Of a DNA stretch of 64,000 nucleotides, positions 7,083 through 52,353 are shown one piece after another. A program made the translations under genes and the position numbers. Where the stretch lies: the NCBI RefSeq assembly GCF_965262535.1, contig NZ_OZ253542.1; one strand, given 5' to 3'. Position 1 is the first letter of the stretch. Each line of letters opens with the position of its first letter. The stretch is from Brevundimonas sp. GTDB lineage: Bacteria > Pseudomonadota > Alphaproteobacteria > Caulobacterales > Caulobacteraceae. A model generated the notes under the pieces. It had not been told where the DNA came from and searched no databases. It saw only the letters and a program-made list of their open reading frames with translations.

Positions 7083-7975
7083 CAGTGCAGGACGTTGAAG
7101 AACCGGTCCAGACGCACGTTGAACCAGCTGACCGGGTTCCACAGCGAGGAGCCGGGCTTCCACGAGAACAGGATGATCTGCGCCTTGCCGACCAGGTTCT
7201 CGGCCGGGACCATGCCCACGCCGCTGGACTGTTCGACGCGGCTGTCGATCGAGTTGTCGCGGTTGTCGCCCATCATGAAGTAATGGCCGGCCGGCACCTC
7301 ATAGACGGGCGTATCGTCCAGATCGTTTCCGGGGCCGAAGTCCTGGGTCATGAAGCTCTTGCCCTCGGGCAGGGTTTCACGAACCTCGGTGACCGGGCGC
7401 GGACCGAAGATGTCTTCGATCTCGGTGCGGGTGACGACCACGTCCTGAACGGGCTTGTCGTTGATATACAGCTTGTTGGCGATCATCTGGATGCGGTCGC
7501 CAGGTAGGCCGATCACGCGCTTGATGAAGTCGGTCTTGTTGTCGCGCGGCAGTTTGAACACGACGATGTCGCCGCGCTTGGGCGCCGAACCCATGATCCG
7601 GCCGTCGAAAAGCGGCGGGCTGAACGGGATGGAGTGTTTCGAGAAGCCGTACGACCATTTCGACACGACGATATAGTCGCCTTCGTACAGGTTCGGCTCC
7701 ATCGAGGCGGACGGAATGGTGAAGGGCTGGAACAGGAAGATCCGCAGCACCATGGCGATCAGCAGGGCGAAGACGATGGTCTTGAAGATTTCGCCGGTCT
7801 CGCTGGCCGCCGACGCCTTCTTGCCGCGCTCGCCGGGCGTGTTGGCATAGACCTTCTGGTTCGCCGTCGTCGGTTCCTGAACCGACTTGACCGGAGCGTC
7901 GGCTTCCGACGCCGCAAAACGTTCCTCGGGGGTGGCGTCGCGATTGGCGTCGTCGGGCTTTTGGTCTTCGCTCAT
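7082..7975 (-). CDS. lepB: Signal peptidase I
   Basis: PSASMEPNL (catalytic Ser), [11 protein letters not shown] (Lys), [11 protein letters not shown]. The start could also be 7987. Confidence 0.95.
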
Positions 7976-8030
7976 GCGATCAGGCATCCTCGCCGCGTCC
8001 GCGCGGTCATCGCGCACGCCTATAACCTGA

Positions 8031-8432
8031 TTACGACTGCGGCAAGGCTTCGATGACCACGAAGGCCAGCGCATAGGGATGTTCGTCGCTCAGCGTCAGG
8101 TGGATCTTCGCCTCGTGTCCGGGCGGCGTCAGGCGCGCCAGATGCTCGGCCGCGTGTCCGGTCAGGGCCATCGTCGGCTGGCCGGAGCGCAGGTTCACCA
8201 CCCCCATGTCTTTCCAATAGACATCGGCACGCATCCCCGTGCCCAGCGCCTTGGCGCAGGCCTCCTTTGCGGCGAACCGCTTGGCGTAGCTCCAGGCCGG
8301 GTCTGGTTTGCGGTCCGAGCGCGTGCGTTCCAACGCGGTGAAGCAGCGGTTCTTGAAGCGATCCCCGAACCGATCCAGCGAGGTCTGGATGCGGCGAATG
8401 TCCGACAGATCGGCGCCGACCCCGATGATCAT
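8031..8432 (-). CDS. acpS: Holo-ACP synthase
   Basis: [32 protein letters not shown]. Confidence 0.96.
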
Positions 8433-9166
8433 GCCGCGTCCATCGCCGCGCGCATCCGGCGGATGGCGGCGTCCAGGCCGATGAAGATCGATTCCCCGAT
8501 CAGGAAATGGCCGATGTTCAGTTCGCGAATTTCCGGGATGGCCAGCATTCGCGGCGCCGTGTCGTAATCCAGTCCATGCCCCGCATGGACCTCCAGCCCC
8601 AGGATGTCGGCCTGGGCGGCCGCGGCTGCCAGACGTTCGAACTCGACCTCGCGTTCGCCGGGATCGGTCAGATGACAGTAGCGGCCGGTGTGAAACTCGA
8701 CCACCTGGGCGCCGACGGCGGCGGCGGCCTCGACCTGGGCCTCGGCCGGTTCGATGAACAGCGAGACCCGGATGTCGGCCTCGGCCAGCGTCTTCACGAC
8801 GGGGGCGATGCGGGCCTCATGACCGGCGACCGCCAGTCCGCCCTCTGTCGTCACCTCCTCGCGGCGTTCGGGCACCAGACAGGCGGCGTGCGGCCGGTGG
8901 CGCAGGGCAATGGCCATCATCTCCTCCGTCACCGCCATCTCGAAGTTCAGCGGCTTGCCCGCGCGGGCGCATAGAGCGCTCAGCACGTCGATGTCGGCGT
9001 CGGTGATATGGCGACGATCTTCGCGCAGATGGGCGGTGATGCCGTCGGCGCCGGCCGCCAGCGCCGCCTCGGCCGCGCGGGCGGGATCGGGATGAATGCC
9101 GCCGCGCGCGTTTCGCACTGTGGCGACGTGGTCGATGTTGATACCGAGGCGAACGCGCTGGGTCAT
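8429..9166 (-). CDS. pdxJ: Pyridoxine 5'-phosphate synthase
   Basis: [33 protein letters not shown]. Confidence 0.97.
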
Positions 9167-9178
9167 CTCAACTCCCGC

Positions 9179-9296
9179 TCATCCCGGCGAAAGCCGGGAC
9201 CCAGTTCTTTTGCACCACCATGTGCCGGCCGACGGCCTGCGCCTCTAGGTTCCGCCCATCGCCCAAAGTGCTGGGTCCCGGCTTTCGCCGGGATGA
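9179..9296. repeat. REP doublet (REPIN-like) hairpin element, 26 bp perfect terminal inverted repeats
   Basis: TCATCCCGGCGAAAGCCGGGACCCAG (9179-9204) and its exact reverse complement (9271-9296) flank a 66 bp spacer. Each arm contains its own CCCGGC-GAAA-GCCGGG palindrome. Confidence 0.85.
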
Positions 9297-9310
9297 ACGG
9301 ACAAAGGAGT

Positions 9311-9895
9311 TCACTTCGACAAACGCCGGCTGCCGGGATCTTCCACCGGCAGCGCGGCCAGTTCCGGCGGCAGGGCGTCGGCCGGATAGGCCGGCACGTC
9401 GAGCGAGGCCAGGGCGATCAGCGGCACGCCGACATCCGCCTTTCCGCCCGACCGATCCACGATACAGGCCGCCGCGATCACCTCGCCCCCCGCCGCCTGG
9501 ATGGCCGCGATGCATTCGCGAGACGACAGGCCGGTCGTGACGATATCCTCGACCATGACCACCTTCTCGCCCGGCTCGACCGAGAAGCCGCGACGAAGCT
9601 TGAAGGCGCCGCCCTCCCGCTCGACATACATCGACCGGACCTTCAAGTGTTTGGCCGTCTCATAGCCGGGAATGATGCCGCCAACGGCGGGAGAGATGGC
9701 GACATCCACAGGGCCGACAGTCGCCACGACCTTCTCGGCCAGGGCCTTGCACAACCGCTCGCAGCGCGCGCCGTCCATGAAGACCAGGTTCTTCTGCAGG
9801 AAGACCGGGCTGTGCAGACCGGAAGACAAAACGAAATGGCCTTCGCGCAGGGCGCCGGCGTCGCGGAACTCGTTGAGGACGTCTTGGGTGTTCAT
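9311..9895 (-). CDS. pyrE: Orotate phosphoribosyltransferase
   Basis: [15 protein letters not shown]-binding [10 protein letters not shown]. Confidence 0.96.
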
Positions 9896-45232: not shown

Positions 45233-45940
45233 GACGGCCTCAGCGCAAACTCCGAGGCCGTCCTTCTAAGGATGCGGCTTTACAACCCGTTCAGCACCGC
45301 TCCAGACGTCTTTGCGAACCGCGCCGGACGCCTGGGCGGGCTTCGGTCTGCAGGTCAGCCAGCAATTGGACTGCGGCCTGAGCATGTAACGCAGCCCCTA
45401 TAGATCTGGTTGGTGTGCTCGGAGCGCCGCCGTAGCGCCTAGGCGGCGACGGGTTCCGGCCTTCCTGACTTGCCGCTCGATTTGCTCGATCCCGTCAGCA
45501 AAGGAGGCTCGACCGACTATCCGCCCGTCTGAGACAGCCGCTACGACTACATCGCGACCGGCCTCTGTGTTCAGGATAGGATCGCCTCGAACGCTTGAGG
45601 CCCGTTGCCGGGTGCTCGCGGCCGGAGGCGGTGAAGACCTACGCCTTCACCGCCCACTTCATCGGTCCGGGCGTCAGCAGCACCCACCGGCCGTTCTTAG
45701 CGTGAGCAGGGCTGACGTATCTGGTCACGCCACACTGGTCGATCTACCGGAGTTGGCATGCTCCTCGAAAGCCGTGTTCGCGGCGTCGAGATCGAGGTCG
45801 CGGCCCGGCCGTTAGATGCGTAGACCTTGGTCGCCTGCTACGCTTTCGGCTTCAGTGAGAGCCGTTTTCGCCGCGCACGACAGCCGGGGCGAGCGCCGTT
45901 GGAACGGCGGCGCCTCCGAGGGCCTGACAGACGTTCGAGG

Positions 45941-47161
45941 TCAACGCCCGCGTCCCCCTTCGGGGCTGCGAGGCGACGAAACCGGGTTGGCCCTTGATCC
46001 GCCGGGGAAGGGTTTGACGACATAATCGTTGGCGAAGATGTTGGGGGCGAACGGATAGTCGGTCGAGATGATCTGGGCGCCGCTGGCCAGGGCCGCGTCG
46101 CGCCGCGTCACATCGTTCGTGCGCGCCTCGCCGGTGTCGATGTCGGAACGGGTGCGCACCAGATAGCCGCGTGAAACCAGGTCGCGGATTTCGTCGCCGT
46201 GCGTCAGCACGTTGTCGATCATGACGAAGGCGGCGTGGGGCATGCCGGGCCGCCCCTGAACGAAGGCCATTCGCCCCTCCAGGTTCGGATGGCCCTCCAT
46301 ATAGGGCGCGAATGTCGCCAGGTTCAGACCCGGCACTATCATCAGGAAGACGATCTTGCCGCGCGCCGCCTCCAGCGTGGGCCAGCCGCCATCAAGCGCA
46401 GCGGCTTCCAGCGTCGCATGATCGCCGCGCACGTCGTCGGGCGTGATGACCCGCTCGCGTCCTATGATCTCCGCGATGGAGGCGTCCATTTCGGCGAAGG
46501 CGCGGGCGTCGAACGGATCGAGCGGCGTGGCGTCCGGCGCGAAGGCGGCCAGGCTTTGGAACTTCGGCTCCAGCAGGATGAACACCGGCGAATGCCCGGG
46601 ATTGGCGTCCGACCAGGCCCGGACCTGTTGCAGACACAGCCGGAAGGTCGGGCAGTGGCTGCGGAAATCCACGTCCACGGCGTGCATGACCTTCAGCCCC
46701 GGCTGGGCCAGAGCCTGATCGTAAAGGGGGGCCAGATCCTTGGCGCCCTGTTCGCGCAGGATACGATAGGGCAGCGGATTGCTGAACCGCCCCCCCTCGT
46801 GGTCGACGTTCAGATCGAACTCCAGGCTGCGCAGACCCGCCCGCAGCTGCGCCTCGATCGGCGGATGGATATATTCCAGCCCGGACTGCAGATCCTCAAA
46901 GATCGCATTGGGGTGTTCGTCGCGCAGCACCGCCATCGCCTCGGCGGGCAGGCTGGAGAATATGCGGTCCAGCATGGGCTGAAGCATGGGCTTCATCACC
47001 GAAAAGACCCGAGGGTCCGCCGGCTGGCTGTAGCTGTTGTGCGTGCCGATCACCTGGATCTGGTTCAGGCGGGGCTGCGGCGTTTGCGCGGCGGCGGAGG
47101 CGGCGATGGCGATCGCCGCCAATGCGGCGGAGGCTGACAGAAGGGCTTTCATGACGCTCAT
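45941..47161 (-). CDS. Secreted Ca2+-dependent PI-PLC-like phosphodiesterase (SaPLC1-like)
   Basis: Signal peptide; LNQIQVIGTHNSY, LRSLEFD, HAVDVDFRSHC, GHSPVFILLEPK, GYLVRTRSD, GAQIISTDY. Confidence 0.82.
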   Translation of the reverse strand: MSVMKALLSASAALAAIAIAASAAAQTPQPRLNQIQVIGTHNSYSQPADPRVFSVMKPMLQPMLDRIFSSLPAEAMAVLRDEHPNAIFEDLQSGLEYIHPPIEAQLRAGLRSLEFDLNVDHEGGRFSNPLPYRILREQGAKDLAPLYDQALAQPGLKVMHAVDVDFRSHCPTFRLCLQQVRAWSDANPGHSPVFILLEPKFQSLAAFAPDATPLDPFDARAFAEMDASIAEIIGRERVITPDDVRGDHATLEAAALDGGWPTLEAARGKIVFLMIVPGLNLATFAPYMEGHPNLEGRMAFVQGRPGMPHAAFVMIDNVLTHGDEIRDLVSRGYLVRTRSDIDTGEARTNDVTRRDAALASGAQIISTDYPFAPNIFANDYVVKPFPGGSRANPVSSPRSPEGGRGR

Positions 47162-49458
47162 CCTTCGATACGGAAGCGCAGGCCGAAGAAGCGCGGATTG
47201 GCGCGGATCGCCGTCGGCACGCCGAAACTCTTGCCGCCGTTGCCCACATCGCGGACCCAGTCCTGATCGAACAGGTTCTCGCCATACAGTTCGATGCGCA
47301 GACCGTCCTGGCGCTCCAGGCCCAGGCGCAGATCGAACAGGCCGAACGCCTTCTGCATCTCCGTCTCGAGGTTGTCGTTGTTCATGTAGAACTTGGACCG
47401 CCAGGCGTAGTTGCCGTTGGCGAACACCTCCCAGCCGGACGCCACCGGCCGGCGCCAATCGGCGCCGATCGAGGCGGTGTGTTTCGGCGCCATTCTGAAG
47501 ACATTGCCCGAACGGTCGGTCAGCACCCCGCCGACGACTTCATAGAATTCGTCATACTGGCTGTGAAGATAGGCGTAGGCGGCCGTCAGCTTGAGGTCAG
47601 GCGAAACCCGCCAGGTCGTATTGGTCTCAAGCCCATAGGCCGAAGCCTTGCCCGCATTCACGGTGCCGACCGTGATGTCGATCGCGCGGGTCTGGAAGTC
47701 GTTGTAGTCGTAGGTGAAGGCGGCCGCCTCGAAATACAGGTTGCGGCCCAGATTGCCCTTGGCGCCGATCTCGTAGTTGACGATCTCTTCGGTCTTCAGT
47801 TCGTTGTAGATCGGCCGTGCAGACCCCGCGACCGGCGCCGCGAAGCTCACCTGCGGATACCCTGAACGCAGTCCGCGCGACACGCCGGCATAGGCGTTGA
47901 CCGCGTCCGTCACCCGCCACGTCACCGAGGCGCGCGGCTGGACCAGATTGTATTCGCCGGTGTTGGAGAACGCCTGCCCCAGGGAGTTGCCTAGGCCATT
48001 GGGCAGGGCGATGGGCGCAACGCCGTCGATCGTCGACACCCGGGCCGAGTTGCTGACCGTGGCCTGATCGTAGGTGTAGCGCAGGCCCACATCCAGGGTC
48101 AGTCGCGGCGCCAGATCATAGCTGACGTTGCCATAGGCGGACCAACTGTCGCGGTCATTGCGGGTGGAGTTGAGATTGGTCACGCCCTTCGTCACCGGCA
48201 GGAACACGCCCGGCGCCACCTGAAGCCGGGTGACGGGCGTGGTGGCTTTCGGGAAACCCGCCAGCAGCAGCTGTTCGTTCAAGGTCAGCTCGACCAGATT
48301 ATAGGTCTTGTCGTTGTAGTAGCTGACGCCGAAGGCCGTACGGAAGCGACCGCCGTCGTCGTAGTTCAGGCGCAGTTCCTGGCTGAGAATCTTCTGGTCG
48401 TCGGCCAGATTGCGGCCGATGGCGAACTCATAGGAAGTGCCGTCGATATCCCACGACTCCTCGAAGTCGACCTTACGCCAGGCGCTGATTGAGCGAAGGC
48501 TCCAGGCGTCGTTGACGTCCCACTGGCCGATCAGGGTCGCGCCGGTCTGGCTGCGATGCTGGGGCGGGTCGTAATAGTTCTGGGCCGCGTCGCTGAACGG
48601 ATTGGTGTCTCCGCCGGGCGAGGCGATATTGATCGCCTTGGTCATAGCCGCGGCGTCGGCGTCGGTCTGATGATCGATGATCAGATCGAAAAAGGCGTTC
48701 GGCGTCGCCAGCCAACGCAGCGAAGCCCGCGCGGCCCACAGGTCGTCGTCGTTCAACATCCGGCCATCGACGATGTTGCGGGCATAACCGTCACGCTCGC
48801 GACGGCGCACGGCGACACGCAGCCCCAGCTCGTCCTGCACGATCGGCACGTTCAGAACGCCCGTCACCCCATAGAGGTTGTAGTTGCCGAGCTGACCTTC
48901 CATCGACCAAGCCGTTTCCGATGGATCGGCGCGACGGGTATAGACGGCGATGGCGCCGGTCTGTGATCCACGGCCATACAGGGCGCCTTGCGGCCCCTTG
49001 GCGATCTCGACCCGCTCGATATCGAACAACTCCTTCAGCGCGCCGCGCGACCGGCTGGTGTCGACATCGTTCAGAAAGAACGAGATGCCCGGCTCCGACG
49101 CCGCGCCCGCACTGGCCGCCTCGACGCCGCGCATGACGAAACTGGCCGAACTGTCCGTCTGCTGCTGCACGAAGAAGCCCGGCGTCCGCAGGGACAGCCG
49201 CTCGAAATCGGTCAGATTCTCGCGATCCAGGGCCTCGGCGCCGAAGGCGACGATGGAGATGGGCACATCCTTCAAGCGCTGCTCGCGCTTTTGAGCCGTG
49301 ACGATCACCTCGTCGACGAGGCTCGCCTGTCCGGCGCCGACGTCTTGAGCGAACGCTTGTTCAGCCGCCAGACCGCTGACGCCGCACATGAGAAGAAGAC
49401 GGAACGCCGCCTGAGAAAACCGGAACGACACTGGAAAAACCCCCTGCTGGACAACCAC
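47158..49458 (-). CDS. TonB-dependent receptor
   Basis: EVIVTAQKREQ...VPISI, ERVEIAKGPQGALYGRGSQTGAI plug; beta-barrel. Start uncertain (GTG 49431 is an alternative). Confidence 0.92.
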   Translation of the reverse strand: MVVQQGVFPVSFRFSQAAFRLLLMCGVSGLAAEQAFAQDVGAGQASLVDEVIVTAQKREQRLKDVPISIVAFGAEALDRENLTDFERLSLRTPGFFVQQQTDSSASFVMRGVEAASAGAASEPGISFFLNDVDTSRSRGALKELFDIERVEIAKGPQGALYGRGSQTGAIAVYTRRADPSETAWSMEGQLGNYNLYGVTGVLNVPIVQDELGLRVAVRRRERDGYARNIVDGRMLNDDDLWAARASLRWLATPNAFFDLIIDHQTDADAAAMTKAINIASPGGDTNPFSDAAQNYYDPPQHRSQTGATLIGQWDVNDAWSLRSISAWRKVDFEESWDIDGTSYEFAIGRNLADDQKILSQELRLNYDDGGRFRTAFGVSYYNDKTYNLVELTLNEQLLLAGFPKATTPVTRLQVAPGVFLPVTKGVTNLNSTRNDRDSWSAYGNVSYDLAPRLTLDVGLRYTYDQATVSNSARVSTIDGVAPIALPNGLGNSLGQAFSNTGEYNLVQPRASVTWRVTDAVNAYAGVSRGLRSGYPQVSFAAPVAGSARPIYNELKTEEIVNYEIGAKGNLGRNLYFEAAAFTYDYNDFQTRAIDITVGTVNAGKASAYGLETNTTWRVSPDLKLTAAYAYLHSQYDEFYEVVGGVLTDRSGNVFRMAPKHTASIGADWRRPVASGWEVFANGNYAWRSKFYMNNDNLETEMQKAFGLFDLRLGLERQDGLRIELYGENLFDQDWVRDVGNGGKSFGVPTAIRANPRFFGLRFRIEG

Positions 49459-49557
49459 GCGGGGGGCTTATGACGGGCGATGATGACGCCAACATAACAC
49501 TTGTACGAAACTTGACACCGACACGACGGCGCAAACCCGAAAAGTGCGAACGGTTGT

Positions 49558-50763
49558 TCAGTTTCTCAGATTGACCAGCAGCCAGGATCGCAGGGCGTCG
49601 AATCTGTTTTCGCCATCCACGCTGCTCAGGGCGGCGGCGCCGATGCCGGCAAGGGCCGCCACCTGCCCATCCAGACCGTCGATATGAGTCCAGCCTTCTT
49701 CCCGCAGAGTGTGGACGTAGTTTTCTCCGCGCAGACGTCGCAAGTCGATCGCCTGCGCCGCCAGGGTCTCGTTTCTCGCCGCGGCCAGGGCGAAGTAGAG
49801 CGTACCGCGAACGACGACGGCCGCCCTTCGCTCGAACGAATCCGGCGCGGGCGCGGGCGCGGGCGCCCGCCCCTGGGCTACCAAATAGACCATGGCGAGC
49901 GCCGCGCGCGTCAGGTCCGCAGCCCCTCGAAAATGATAGGCAACCGTCGAACCGGGAATGCCGGCCCTTTCACCGACGGCCCTGTGGGTGACGCCGTCCA
50001 CACCCTCGTCCAGCAGGAGGCCGCACGCCGCCAGGGCGATATCGTGCCGGCGGCCGTGCGCCTGCAGATCTGAAACCCGGTCTCGTCCCGGCAGATCCAG
50101 ACCGGGATCCAGACGCTCGACCAGACCGGAAAAGGCGCGTGCGAGCGGGCCGCGCCGCCCAGGGTCCAGTCGATGAGAAAGCCGCTCCACCGCCAGACGA
50201 CGCAGCAGCCGGTAATCCGCATCGTGAGCCAGGGCCAGGCTGTGGACTCCCTCGTCGACGGTATAGGCCCAACAAGTAGGCCCCCACATCGCGGCGTCCG
50301 CGATGCGGCCCTCGAACAGGTCCGACCAGAAGGCCCGTCTCTCCAGAAACCACGGCCGCATCAACGCCTGGAGGTCGCCATCCTGCGGCGCCCGCAACAG
50401 CAGGTCCGTCCAGATCATCTGCGTCAATCGCGCGTCGTCGCGCGAGATCGCTTCCAGATAATGCTCAAGCAGGGTCGCGACCGCGGTCGCATCCAGCCGA
50501 TCCAGCGCCGCGAACCGCGCCAACCAGGCCCCGTGCCAGGCGCGATCCCGCGCTCTCTCGGCTTCAACGACATCCGACAGGATCTGGGCCTTGGCGCCGA
50601 GGTGATAGGTCAGGGCGCCGGCGGTCGTGCCTGCCGCCTCGCCCAATCGGCGAAAGCTCATCGAGCGCAGGCCGCCCATGGCCAACTCGCGACGCGCCGC
50701 CTCCATCATCCGCTCCGACGCCGGCGGCGACGAGGAAGGACGCAAATCGGGATCAGACGCCAT
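49558..50763 (-). CDS. Tandem double-TetR regulator
   Basis: Two HTH motifs: SMSFRRLGEAAGTTAGALTYHLG and GVTHRAVGERAGIPGSTVAYHFR; 401 aa. Confidence 0.82.
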   Translation of the reverse strand: MASDPDLRPSSSPPASERMMEAARRELAMGGLRSMSFRRLGEAAGTTAGALTYHLGAKAQILSDVVEAERARDRAWHGAWLARFAALDRLDATAVATLLEHYLEAISRDDARLTQMIWTDLLLRAPQDGDLQALMRPWFLERRAFWSDLFEGRIADAAMWGPTCWAYTVDEGVHSLALAHDADYRLLRRLAVERLSHRLDPGRRGPLARAFSGLVERLDPGLDLPGRDRVSDLQAHGRRHDIALAACGLLLDEGVDGVTHRAVGERAGIPGSTVAYHFRGAADLTRAALAMVYLVAQGRAPAPAPAPDSFERRAAVVVRGTLYFALAAARNETLAAQAIDLRRLRGENYVHTLREEGWTHIDGLDGQVAALAGIGAAALSSVDGENRFDALRSWLLVNLRN

Positions 50764-50849
50764 GGTTTTCGCCGAAAGTCAGTGCGCAGGCTCGCGAACC
50801 AGGGCGGTATTAGGCGGCCAATGGTGGAGCGAAAAGCCCCGCCTGCGCC

Positions 50850-52142
50850 TTACGCCGCTCTCGATGCTCGCCATGACACGGCGATGAGGGCGCAGATCGC
50901 CGCACCGAACATGGGCGAGCCCGCGATCAGCAGCAGCAGCCCGTCCGTATCGGCCGCCCGATAGTCGAACCGCCCCAGCAACGCGCCTAGCCCCAGCGCG
51001 CTTACGGCCGGCGCCGTCTTGGACACAGCGGTCAGCGCGCCGTAGATCAGCCCGACCTGGGCCCTTGGCCGCGCCGCCGCCTCCTCGGCCGCCGTGGACC
51101 AGATCAACTGGTTCAGCCCTCCGCTGGCGATGCCGATGACGCCCGCCGCCGCCGTCGCGGCCCAGGGCGTCCGCGCCGCCAATCCGAAAGCCAGAGCGCC
51201 GGCCATCAGAGCCAGGCTCATTATCCCTAACGCCCTGCCCCGCTCCAGACTTGCAATCACCCGTTCCCAGACCGGCTGGGACAGCATCACCCCGCACGCG
51301 CCGGCGATCGCCAGCGCGCCCGCCCATACAGGCGACCCCAGCACATAGGCGACGTAATAGGGTTCCAACTTTGCGAAGGCCGACACCGCCAAAAGAAACG
51401 CGAACGCCATGCCGTAGAGCGGCGCAAGGGCGATCATCGCGGACCAGTCGCCTGACCCCACCCTCGTCTCGCGCGGCGAGGAAGAGGCGTTGTCCGACCA
51501 CTGGCCGGACAGCGCGTGCTGCAGCCACAGCGCCGTGCCCAGCCCGATGACCGTCATCGCCGCCCCCAGCCAGACGAACAGGGCCGCGCGTCGATCCGCA
51601 CCCGAGAACGCCTCGGAAGCGAGAACAGGCAGGATCGCCGCAGCCAATAGCAGCGCCGCCAGACCGCTGGTCGCCACCCTCAGGGCCGCGACCCGCGACC
51701 TCGACCAGGCGTCCGTCGTAGCCAGGGTCATCAAGGCGTTCTGCGGCGTGTCATAAAGGCTGTAGGCCGCCCGAAACGCCAGCAGGGTGGCGATCACCCA
51801 CCCCAACCGCACGTCGTCCGGCGCCAGCGGCGTCAAGAACAGCCCCACCAACGCCATGCTCGCCAGCACACATCCCACGACCTGCAAGACGGCGGCGGAG
51901 CGTGTAAACGACAGCCGGCGCCGCAGGGTCCGGCCTATCACCACGTCGGTCGCGGCGCTGAGCAGCAGACTGCCCGCCAGAACCCCTCCCATCATCAGCG
52001 GCGACAGTCCCGCGACCTCGGTCAGGAAGAACGCCAGCAACAGCGTTCCGCAGTTCCAGAACAGGCTCTTTCCGAAATGCGCGGCGCAATAGGCCAGCGT
52101 CAGCCCACGATCCCGACCGATGGAACGCCTTTCCGCCGACAT
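50850..52142 (-). CDS. MFS transporter, glycoside-pentoside-hexuronide (MelB-like) type
   Basis: HFGKSLFWN, DVVIGR, AYSLYDTPQNALM...RSRVAALR; 12 TM pattern. Confidence 0.78.
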   Translation of the reverse strand: MSAERRSIGRDRGLTLAYCAAHFGKSLFWNCGTLLLAFFLTEVAGLSPLMMGGVLAGSLLLSAATDVVIGRTLRRRLSFTRSAAVLQVVGCVLASMALVGLFLTPLAPDDVRLGWVIATLLAFRAAYSLYDTPQNALMTLATTDAWSRSRVAALRVATSGLAALLLAAAILPVLASEAFSGADRRAALFVWLGAAMTVIGLGTALWLQHALSGQWSDNASSSPRETRVGSGDWSAMIALAPLYGMAFAFLLAVSAFAKLEPYYVAYVLGSPVWAGALAIAGACGVMLSQPVWERVIASLERGRALGIMSLALMAGALAFGLAARTPWAATAAAGVIGIASGGLNQLIWSTAAEEAAARPRAQVGLIYGALTAVSKTAPAVSALGLGALLGRFDYRAADTDGLLLLIAGSPMFGAAICALIAVSWRASRAA

Positions 52143-52353
52143 GCCCGCCCCGCCTCGGCCCTGCCGTCATCCGGATACCGTAATGAGCGCACCCTATTCC
52201 AAATAAATGATGGACGCATGACACCGAACGCCGTCGTCTTTGGTCGGCCCGTACTCTTCAAAGTCATCACCGACTTGCGGTCCGCCTCAATGACGGAGCA
52301 AACTCGTTGAAGCTCGCGAGACTGCAGTTAGATGTGTCGCGCAGTAAATCTAG

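Follow-up and report, generated by a model that had tools for sequence, protein, structure and literature searches.

A mobile receptor-phosphodiesterase cassette of Brevundimonas with a single-chain double TetR regulator and a conserved Pho-box-like site: a candidate module for phosphodiester scavenging

Four genes form a compact cassette

The window analysed here is a 64,000-nucleotide (nt) stretch of contig NZ_OZ253542.1 from Brevundimonas sp. (assembly GCF_965262535.1). Positions 45941-52142 of this window comprise a cassette of four open reading frames (ORFs), all on the minus strand and each identified by Pfam. They encode a transporter of the major facilitator superfamily (MFS), a regulator with two TetR units in one chain, a TonB-dependent receptor (TBDR) and a phospholipase C (PLC)-like enzyme of family PF16670. 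In the order of transcription, the genes are:

50850-52142, minus strand: MFS_2 transporter, 430 amino acids (Pfam)
49558-50763, minus strand: double TetR regulator, 401 amino acids (Pfam TetR_N, twice)
47158-49458 as the listed ORF, likely 47158-49433, minus strand: TBDR (Pfam Plug plus barrel)
45941-47161, minus strand: PF16670 PI-PLC-C1 enzyme (Pfam, E 9e-104)

The four co-directional genes had been recognized in an earlier reading of this DNA made from the letters alone (hereafter the sequence-only reading), which also proposed that receptor and enzyme are coupled through a TGA/ATG overlap. The overlap (ATGA) is present at 47161-47158. However, an alternative ATG at 47152 is the likelier enzyme start, as judged from the sequence: it is located 5 nt past the TBDR stop codon with a GAAGGA Shine-Dalgarno 8 nt upstream, it is the start in database copies (403 amino acids) and it is aligned in all homologues. 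The two genes are tightly coupled whichever start is used. The TBDR itself probably starts at the GTG at 49431-49433 rather than at 49458, because a conserved AGGGG Shine-Dalgarno precedes this GTG.

The enzyme adopts a predicted phospholipase-C-like fold

The enzyme matches PF16670 with 347.4 bits (cut-off 29.9), and the match extends over residues 31-389, or profile positions 2-323 (profile length 329). The N-terminus carries a Sec-type cleavable signal peptide that ends AAA/Q, with cleavage at approximately residue 26. The AlphaFold2 model (predicted local distance difference test score, pLDDT, 88.4; predicted template-modelling score 0.88) exhibits a PLC-like TIM-barrel that resembles the solved members of the family. 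The top Foldseek matches are SaPLC1 from Streptomyces antibioticus (3h4w, E 3e-14) and the Ca2+-dependent enzyme from Pseudomonas sp. 62186 (5fyo/5fyp/5fyr, E 6e-12), followed by eukaryotic PLCs (PLC-delta1) and GlpQ. The template-modelling scores are moderate (0.45-0.65), identity to the solved enzymes is 12-18% in the Foldseek alignments, and HMMER aligns the cassette enzyme to SaPLC1 over about 115 central residues only, in the central β-strand/helix region. Both relatives belong to PF16670, and their PDB entries (for SaPLC1, 3h4w/3h4x) name them phosphatidylinositol- or phosphoinositol-specific phospholipases C (PI-PLCs). Compared with these two proteins, the mature cassette enzyme is approximately 80 residues longer. 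The sequence-only reading had called the enzyme SaPLC1-like, and this assignment holds: it is a full-length member of the Ca2+-dependent PLC-like family with SaPLC1 and the Pseudomonas enzyme as its best structural matches.

Seven residues (H41, N42, E114, D116, H160, E198 and K200) are invariant in 26 homologues of the enzyme. The first six follow what we take to be the order of the catalytic and Ca2+-binding set of PLC-delta1 (H311/N312/E341/D343/H356/E390). Because the invariant residues keep this presumed order, the enzyme is likely an active phosphodiesterase.

The genome encodes a second PF16670 protein (G000:C1:3043696-3044682; locus L013, ORF 7340-9418, plus strand), which also contains a PAP2 phosphatase domain as a fusion. 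The sequence at its probable start, MSALLATLFLAATAC..., resembles a lipoprotein signal. Approximately 70 nt upstream of this gene lies a triple repeat with an 11-bp period, ACGTCTT-TGGG-GTGTCAT-GCGG-CTGTTGA, which resembles the pst Pho box of the same genome.

The receptor and the transporter

The TBDR comprises a Plug domain (Pfam, 48.9 bits) and a β-barrel (TonB_dep_Rec_b-barrel, 151.8 bits), and it has no STN extension. It scores below every curated NCBIfam cut-off for siderophore, heme or B12 receptors, and no curated substrate class was matched. Two further features of this gene were observed. The C-terminus (47158-47175) and those of close orthologues read ...RFRIEG, ...RFRIQG or ...RVRITR instead of ending in the usual terminal aromatic residue, and the sphingomonad-type TBDRs of the same module have the canonical terminal F. 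Moreover, third-position G+C is 0.63 in the TBDR gene versus 0.78-0.85 in the neighbouring genes.

The MFS protein matches Pfam MFS_2 with 94.7 bits (cut-off 27), and its best PDB sequence match is MelB (E 4e-8). The curated model of the GPH transporter family, TIGR00792, gives 91 bits, which is far below its cut-off of 231.35; the name MFS_2-family is therefore preferable to GPH. The former description of this protein as GPH-type is only loosely right: it fits the MFS_2 family and the kinship with MelB but fails at the curated threshold. From its sequence, we assign it as an inner-membrane MFS_2-family transporter, a remote relative of MelB and not a confirmed GPH member.

The regulator contains two TetR units in one chain

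NCBIfam TetR models match the 401-residue regulator at both residues 17-112 and residues 233-344. The two halves are strongly diverged, and their mutual alignment is confined to the helix-turn-helix (HTH). The alignment for this protein comprised eight orthologues from Alpha- and Gammaproteobacteria. The AlphaFold2 model (pLDDT 86.7) is all-helical with 18 helices, and it depicts the regulator as a single-chain repressor with two complete TetR units, each consisting of an HTH and a ligand domain. In Foldseek, Mce3R (9b7y) is the top and only significant full-length match (E 9.5e-5), with 16% identity in the structural alignment; phmmer detected no Mce3R match at E<=0.01. Mce3R of Mycobacterium tuberculosis is a double TetR-family repressor (PDB 9b7y; PMC11667970) that likewise consists of one polypeptide with two complete TetR units. 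The two proteins share this architecture, and the TetR duplication probably occurred independently. Mce3R controls cholesterol-related genes and binds a non-palindromic site, whereas the candidate operators of the cassette regulator are palindromic (see below).

The cassette is inherited as a unit

The identical order MFS-double TetR-TBDR-enzyme is found in Caulobacter sp. RHG1, an uncultured Caulobacter, a Luteimonas sp. and two Stenotrophomonas. The suggestion that the four genes are co-inherited is thus borne out by the same order in Alpha- and Gammaproteobacteria. Across the Caulobacter/Luteimonas/Stenotrophomonas loci, identity to the window proteins is 84/78/72% for the enzyme, 87/74/68% for the TBDR, 76/58/52% for the TetR and 67/47/43% for the MFS protein, and all four proteins rank in parallel. 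The MFS and TetR genes overlap by 4 nt in Luteimonas and Stenotrophomonas.

A core of TetR, TBDR and PLC genes is more widely distributed: it occurs in four Phenylobacterium loci (without the MFS gene), in three Sphingomonas loci, where a further enzyme gene stands in tandem, in loci of Sphingobium and Novosphingobium, and in one metagenomic sphingomonad-like contig. An MFS_2 gene accompanies the TBDR-enzyme pair in at least 10 loci, in three different positions or orientations, and this varied placement suggests that the linkage is functional rather than accidental. PF16670 homologues are present in 94 of 201 Caulobacteraceae genomes, only about 10 of which carry the close type. A co-directional TBDR gene lies immediately upstream of the enzyme gene in 9/9 fetched close-type Caulobacteraceae loci, versus approximately 5/20 of the more distant paralogues. 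That the four genes are mere neighbours without a shared function is barely credible and is contradicted by this synteny: gene order and coupling are held across two proteobacterial classes, the identities rank in parallel, the enzyme tree mirrors the two TBDR types, and regulatory motifs are common to the loci.

Two variant arrangements were observed. The native plasmid pZM32 of Zymomonas mobilis ZM4 (32.8 kb; L076, 6105-9919) bears a divergent pair of a TBDR gene and a PI-PLC-domain gene with an AT-rich spacer, beside toxin-antitoxin and partition genes. In the second Brevundimonas (G020, L011 6196-7839), a tryptophan-halogenase-family gene and a second TBDR gene follow the enzyme gene; halogenase-like genes have also been reported beside TBDR genes in other proteobacteria.

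Horizontal spread of the cassette

Of 41 relatives, only 8 encode a PF16670 homologue. Within the genus, a single further genome carries a copy linked to a TBDR, and this copy belongs to a different clade; the cassette is accessory, as the sequence-only reading had labelled it. A census of 300 other sampled Alphaproteobacteria returned no PF16670 homologue (0/300) and no extra loci. In the maximum-likelihood tree, the window enzyme pairs with that of Caulobacter sp. RHG1 (support 99/96) and then with that of Luteimonas, a gammaproteobacterium (100/99), and the enclosing clade mixes Phenylobacterium with Stenotrophomonas and Pseudoxanthomonas. The tree thereby mixes Alpha- and Gammaproteobacteria while most Brevundimonas lack the cassette, which indicates that the cassette was gained by horizontal transfer. 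The enzyme of the other Brevundimonas nests among Sphingomonadales and is accompanied by the other TBDR type (26% identity to the window TBDR), which points to two independent gains of cassette versions by the genus.

The closest relatives (L065-L071), whose GSP-synthase is 92-97% identical, have neither the cassette nor the heptose and exopolysaccharide genes within 10 kb. The whole region downstream of 45232 varies within the genus, and a clean insertion boundary cannot be drawn. Base composition is uninformative as a signal of transfer (G+C 0.66 in the cassette versus 0.672 in the genome).

A conserved Pho-box-like site and two palindromes

Four regulatory features are predicted in the noncoding and overlapping regions of the cassette:

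52207-52224, minus strand: Pho-box-like site GTGTCATGCGTCCATCAT, 11/14 matches to CTGTCAT-N4-CTGTCAT
49548-49559, minus strand: palindrome GAACAACCGTTC, candidate operator 1, overlapping the TetR stop codon
49494-49506, minus strand: palindrome GTACAAGTGTTAT, candidate operator 2, abutting the putative TBDR-enzyme promoter and conserved across loci
49486-49492 and 49467-49474, minus strand: putative TBDR-enzyme promoter of Caulobacter type, with the -35 element TTGGCGT and the -10 element GTCATAAG

The Pho-box-like site is located 65 nt upstream of the MFS start, and a -10-like hexamer (TAGGGT) follows it after 10 nt. The site thus exhibits the features of a Pho regulon site, with two 7-bp direct repeats at an 11-bp period in the -35 position. 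When the upstream regions are aligned, a Pho-box-like element, CTGTCAT-N4-NCATCAT, precedes the MFS gene in each of the six loci with this layout, and the aligned site occupies the same position in the Caulobacter, Luteimonas and Stenotrophomonas loci. The consensus is also matched at 12/14 in the divergent MFS promoter of the second Brevundimonas and at 12-13/14 upstream of the TBDR gene in two Sphingomonas loci. Each of these scores was reached in 0-61 of 2000 shuffles of the respective region. That this consensus has meaning in the genome follows from its top genome-wide match, a triple repeat that directly precedes pstC in the interval from phoR to the pst-phoU operon; weaker forms are present in the promoters of phoX and pstS. 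No site above 9/14 was found in the Phenylobacterium, S. oleivorans, Pseudohalioglobus and Zymomonas loci.

The first palindrome conforms to (T)GAACA-N2/3-(T)GTTC, which is present at the TetR stop codon in 10/10 close loci. A related palindrome, GAACAnnnGTCTT, occurs in the sphingomonad-type locus L072, with variants in L075 (seen by eye) and L011; the sequences in L072 and L011 fit the pattern of the first palindrome, and the motif was not found in the sphingomonad-type locus L073. The promoter next to the second palindrome was assigned on what we take to be the Caulobacter sigma-73 consensus, TTGACGS-N10-14-GCTANAWC. The conserved Pho box before the MFS gene together with two conserved TetR-type palindromes at the TBDR promoter, all predicted from sequence, is new here, as are the partner genes of other lineages described below.

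For the TBDR promoter, a second canonical Pho box was considered and rejected; just a CCGTCAT half-site is present there. The half-site stretch, (C)CGTCATCA (49475-49491), lies directly 3´ of the second palindrome, and it does so in the loci of Caulobacter, Luteimonas and the sphingomonad contig as well as in the window. There is no proper second half-site at 11 bp, and the window and Caulobacter have GTCAT/GCCAT at 13 bp.

A conserved Pho box would also fit a role in remodelling or recycling of the bacterium's envelope when phosphate is scarce. Phosphodiester-linked head groups would then be stripped by the enzyme from endogenous phospholipids or from periplasmic glucans that bear phosphoglycerol, with the MFS protein recycling the products. 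Caulobacter swaps phospholipids for glycolipids under phosphate starvation, and enzymes that degrade phospholipids belong to its PhoB regulon (PMC11208175); the PF16670 paralogue of the Brevundimonas genome is a lipoprotein PLC-PAP2 fusion. We nevertheless consider such a role very improbable, as the obligatory, translationally coupled TBDR points to an external compound, and a core function would not be expected of an accessory, horizontally mobile cassette that most of the genus lacks.

Partner genes point to a soluble glyco-phosphodiester

Several loci carry additional genes that bear on the cargo. In other lineages, PhoD is encoded between TBDR and enzyme, and further phosphorus-related partners are PhoA plus MFS_1 and a PHO4 phosphate transporter. 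The PLC-PAP2 fusion paralogue of the Brevundimonas genome belongs to the same group. In two separate clades (Caulobacter and the sphingomonad contig), a GH1 gene with a twin-arginine signal is translationally coupled to the enzyme gene; these GH1 genes overlap the enzyme stop codon (L015 9215-10558, SRRQAL; L075 9200-10555, SRRAML). Known GH1 enzymes are mostly cytoplasmic, and the partners found here are predicted to be periplasmic because of their twin-arginine signal peptides. In Sphingomonas oleivorans, GH92 with DUF218 follows the enzyme gene. The Brevundimonas genome encodes PhoX behind a Pho-like box. No glycosidase was found in or beside the cassette in the window, and IolD and MIOX are absent from this genome.

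An acidobacterial contig (L074, 917-9140) holds two PF16670 genes, a CarboxypepD_reg-type TBDR gene and MIOX together. This MIOX is the only direct genomic hint of inositol release by members of the enzyme clade.

Periplasmic glycosidases next to a periplasmic phosphodiesterase suggest, by analogy between loci, that the cargo is a soluble glyco-phosphodiester rather than an intact lipid. The sequence-only reading had proposed a scavenging system in which the receptor imports a lipid or glycerophospho-sugar and the head group may serve as a carbon source. Scavenging as such finds support in the Pho box and in the phosphatase and phosphate-transporter partners. The import of a lipid does not, given that TBDR cargoes are soluble and that the GH1 and GH92 partners point to glyco-phosphodiesters. 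The use of the head group for carbon is likewise not supported, and the absence of IolD and MIOX argues against inositol as a carbon source.

Two other assignments of the substrate have to be weighed against these partners. The enzyme could act outside the cell, as a phospholipase that is secreted or surface-bound and attacks foreign membranes containing phosphatidylinositol (PI), inositol-phosphoceramide or the glycosylphosphatidylinositol (GPI) anchors of fungi, plants and protists, with the TBDR taking up the released inositol or glycan phosphate. The best structural matches of the enzyme, SaPLC1 and the Pseudomonas sp. 62186 PI-PLC, and its cleavable signal peptide are in line with this assignment, and the GH92 α-mannosidase and MIOX partners fit mannosyl-inositol head groups. 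Yet the low Foldseek identity to the characterised PI-PLCs, the lack of a secretion-system gene in the cassette, and the tight coupling to a TBDR together with Tat-exported periplasmic partners suggest action after import, and we regard an external lipase as unlikely. PI and GPI are putative substrates at most.

The second alternative is a carbohydrate-utilization locus containing a TBDR (CUT locus), in which a phosphorylated glycoside or inositol glycan would be imported for carbon, the phosphodiesterase would unblock the sugar and the MFS protein would import the glycoside. The gene set defined for CUT loci (TBDR, inner-membrane transporter, degradative enzyme and regulator; Blanvillain et al. 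2007, PMC1790865) is present in the cassette, and the four-part layout equals that of the sux CUT locus (PMC1790865, PMC12798719). Kinship of the MFS protein with MelB, the Tat-exported GH1 coupled to the enzyme, GH92 in Sphingomonas oleivorans, MIOX in the acidobacterial contig and the Phenylobacterium loci without a Pho box all agree with a carbon source. However, at least five lineages keep the Pho box ahead of the MFS gene, PhoD, PhoA and PHO4 are the partners elsewhere, and neither a glycosidase in or beside the window cassette nor IolD or MIOX in the genome was found. The glycosidase partners in other lineages are the only hints at a carbohydrate substrate, and we regard a carbon-source locus as unlikely.

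A model for the cassette

We favour the reading that the cassette is probably a substrate-gated, phosphate-starvation-responsive scavenging module for soluble organophosphodiesters, which would serve mainly for phosphorus. The model builds on the observed gene identities and linkage, the Pho-box and palindrome motifs, the intact predicted catalytic set and the horizontal spread. Under phosphate limitation, PhoB would bind the Pho box and activate the MFS-TetR transcription unit. The double TetR would bind both palindromes, one where its own gene ends and one by the -35 element of the following promoter, and this binding would keep the TBDR-enzyme operon low until the ligand arrives. Passage of a soluble phosphodiester through the outer membrane would be mediated by the TBDR; this cargo would likely be a lipid head group or a glyco-phosphodiester, for example a glycerophospho- or inositolphospho-compound. 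In the periplasm, the Sec-exported, Ca2+-dependent PLC-like enzyme would cleave the diester into an alcohol and a phosphomonoester. Pho-regulon phosphatases, such as the PhoX of this genome, would then release phosphate for uptake by Pst. The MFS protein would carry the organic product into the cytoplasm, where it would probably act as the TetR inducer, a role close to the sensing of the head group that the sequence-only reading had supposed. We infer each of these binding, transport and catalytic steps, as well as the identity of the cargo, from gene content and motifs.

Several observations weigh against the scavenging module. The Pho box in the window scores only 11/14, and approximately 119 sites in the genome score as high, so that the case for it rests on cross-species conservation. 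No Pho box was found in the MFS-less Phenylobacterium loci, L031, L033 and Zymomonas pZM32, so that the TBDR-PLC pair is not under Pho control everywhere. A carbon-source role would also suit the GH1, GH92 and acidobacterial MIOX partners. Finally, the characterised PF16670 members, SaPLC1 and the Pseudomonas sp. 62186 enzyme, are lipases of membrane PI that are secreted, not periplasmic, share only 12-18% identity with the cassette enzyme in the Foldseek alignments and are not known to be linked to a TBDR.

More tentatively, the scavenging module might be wired as an AND gate for the TBDR-mediated uptake of phosphodiester-linked glycans or head groups, a version about which we are doubtful. 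PhoB would supply the transporter and the repressor, and the double TetR, released by substrate, would free the receptor-enzyme operon only in the presence of the imported product. The cargo of such a gate may be glycosyl-inositol-phosphate fragments of plant or fungal sphingolipids and of GPI anchors, or glycosylated fragments of teichoic acid.

Flanking regions of the cassette

The cassette is flanked by two gaps, the sizes of which agree with the approximately 700 and 210 bp noted previously:

45233-45940: downstream gap, 708 bp, between the enzyme gene and the convergent GSP-synthase gene
52143-52353: upstream gap, 211 bp, adjoining a nucleotidyltransferase gene

The downstream neighbour is a convergent PspA/GSP-synthase cluster, and the upstream neighbour is a heptose-type sugar-nucleotide cluster on the same strand as the cassette. 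The 708-bp gap contains no recognisable gene, RNA family, repeat or terminator, and tblastn gave nothing for a GH1 or PhoD remnant in it. Rfam matches to RNA genes or riboswitches in the gaps were sub-threshold and at chance level, and scans of the gaps for promoters and terminators scored no higher than shuffled sequences. In predicted folding, too, the spacer between the MFS and TetR genes and the stretch 3´ of the enzyme gene did not surpass shuffles. As for scars of mobile elements, the gaps have no second genomic copy and contain short palindromes only. A stretch of approximately 100 nt in the downstream gap (45580-45705, plus strand) is coding-like, with a third-position G+C of 0.85-0.88 in one frame. 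It includes a plus-strand ORF of 36 amino acids (45595-45705), which may be the remnant of a lost gene.

Relation to known systems

The statement in the sequence-only reading that no characterised locus of this design is known is too strong, given the sux/CUT layout and a locus of Flavobacterium johnsoniae named PUSI. PUSI, a "phosphate utilisation system", encodes PusCD1 and two periplasmic phosphodiesterases, one of which belongs to PF16670, and depletion of phosphate induces it (Lidbury et al. 2021, PMC8115612). Its authors propose that it scavenges soil phosphodiesters such as lipid head groups (PMC8115612). Both PUSI and the cassette combine a PF16670 phosphodiesterase and a TonB-dependent outer-membrane transporter in one locus. 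Control by phosphate has been reported as induction for PUSI and is predicted from the Pho box for the cassette. PUSI has a SusC/SusD pair, an extracytoplasmic function (ECF) sigma factor and a second metallophosphoesterase, whereas the TBDR of the cassette is of the classical proteobacterial kind and is accompanied by a single-chain double TetR and MFS_2. No SusD-like gene was found in the cassette, which sets it apart from the Bacteroidetes PUS and PUL loci. By analogy, the cassette can be regarded as the proteobacterial counterpart of Flavobacterium PUSI.

The sux locus of Xanthomonas consists of the LacI repressor SuxR, the MFS symporter SuxC, the TBDR SuxA and the amylosucrase SuxB (PMC1790865, PMC12798719). 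Like the cassette, it combines a substrate-responsive repressor, an MFS transporter, a TBDR and a hydrolase in two transcription units. The substrate of sux is sucrose, whereas that of the cassette is predicted to be a phosphodiester; enzyme and repressor belong to other families, and the cassette has an additional Pho box. The PhoB regulon of Caulobacter crescentus includes TBDR-phosphoesterase pairs, such as CCNA_00486/00487 (PMC11208175). In these pairs, Caulobacteraceae TBDRs adjoin phosphatases under PhoB, for which uptake of alternative phosphorus sources has been proposed; unlike the cassette, they have neither the double TetR nor MFS_2. The combination with a single-chain double TetR, predicted dual control, strict TBDR linkage and cross-class mobility appears to be undescribed, and no published substrate assignment was found in the literature for a receptor paired with a PF16670 enzyme.

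Significance

Much of the phosphorus in soil and water is present as organic diesters, and the cargo of many Pho-regulated TBDRs in Caulobacter, sphingomonads and xanthomonads is an open question that the cassette could address. The cassette is compact, conserved and mobile, with a clear enzyme, a dedicated repressor, predicted operators and a predicted Pho box, and it thus provides a tractable handle. Among Gram-negative bacteria, the single-chain double TetR would be one of few cases of the Mce3R architecture. If the proposed uptake is true, phosphodiester-linked glycans or head groups would probably be a new cargo class for TBDRs, and a function would be assigned to a widespread, uncharacterised branch of PF16670.

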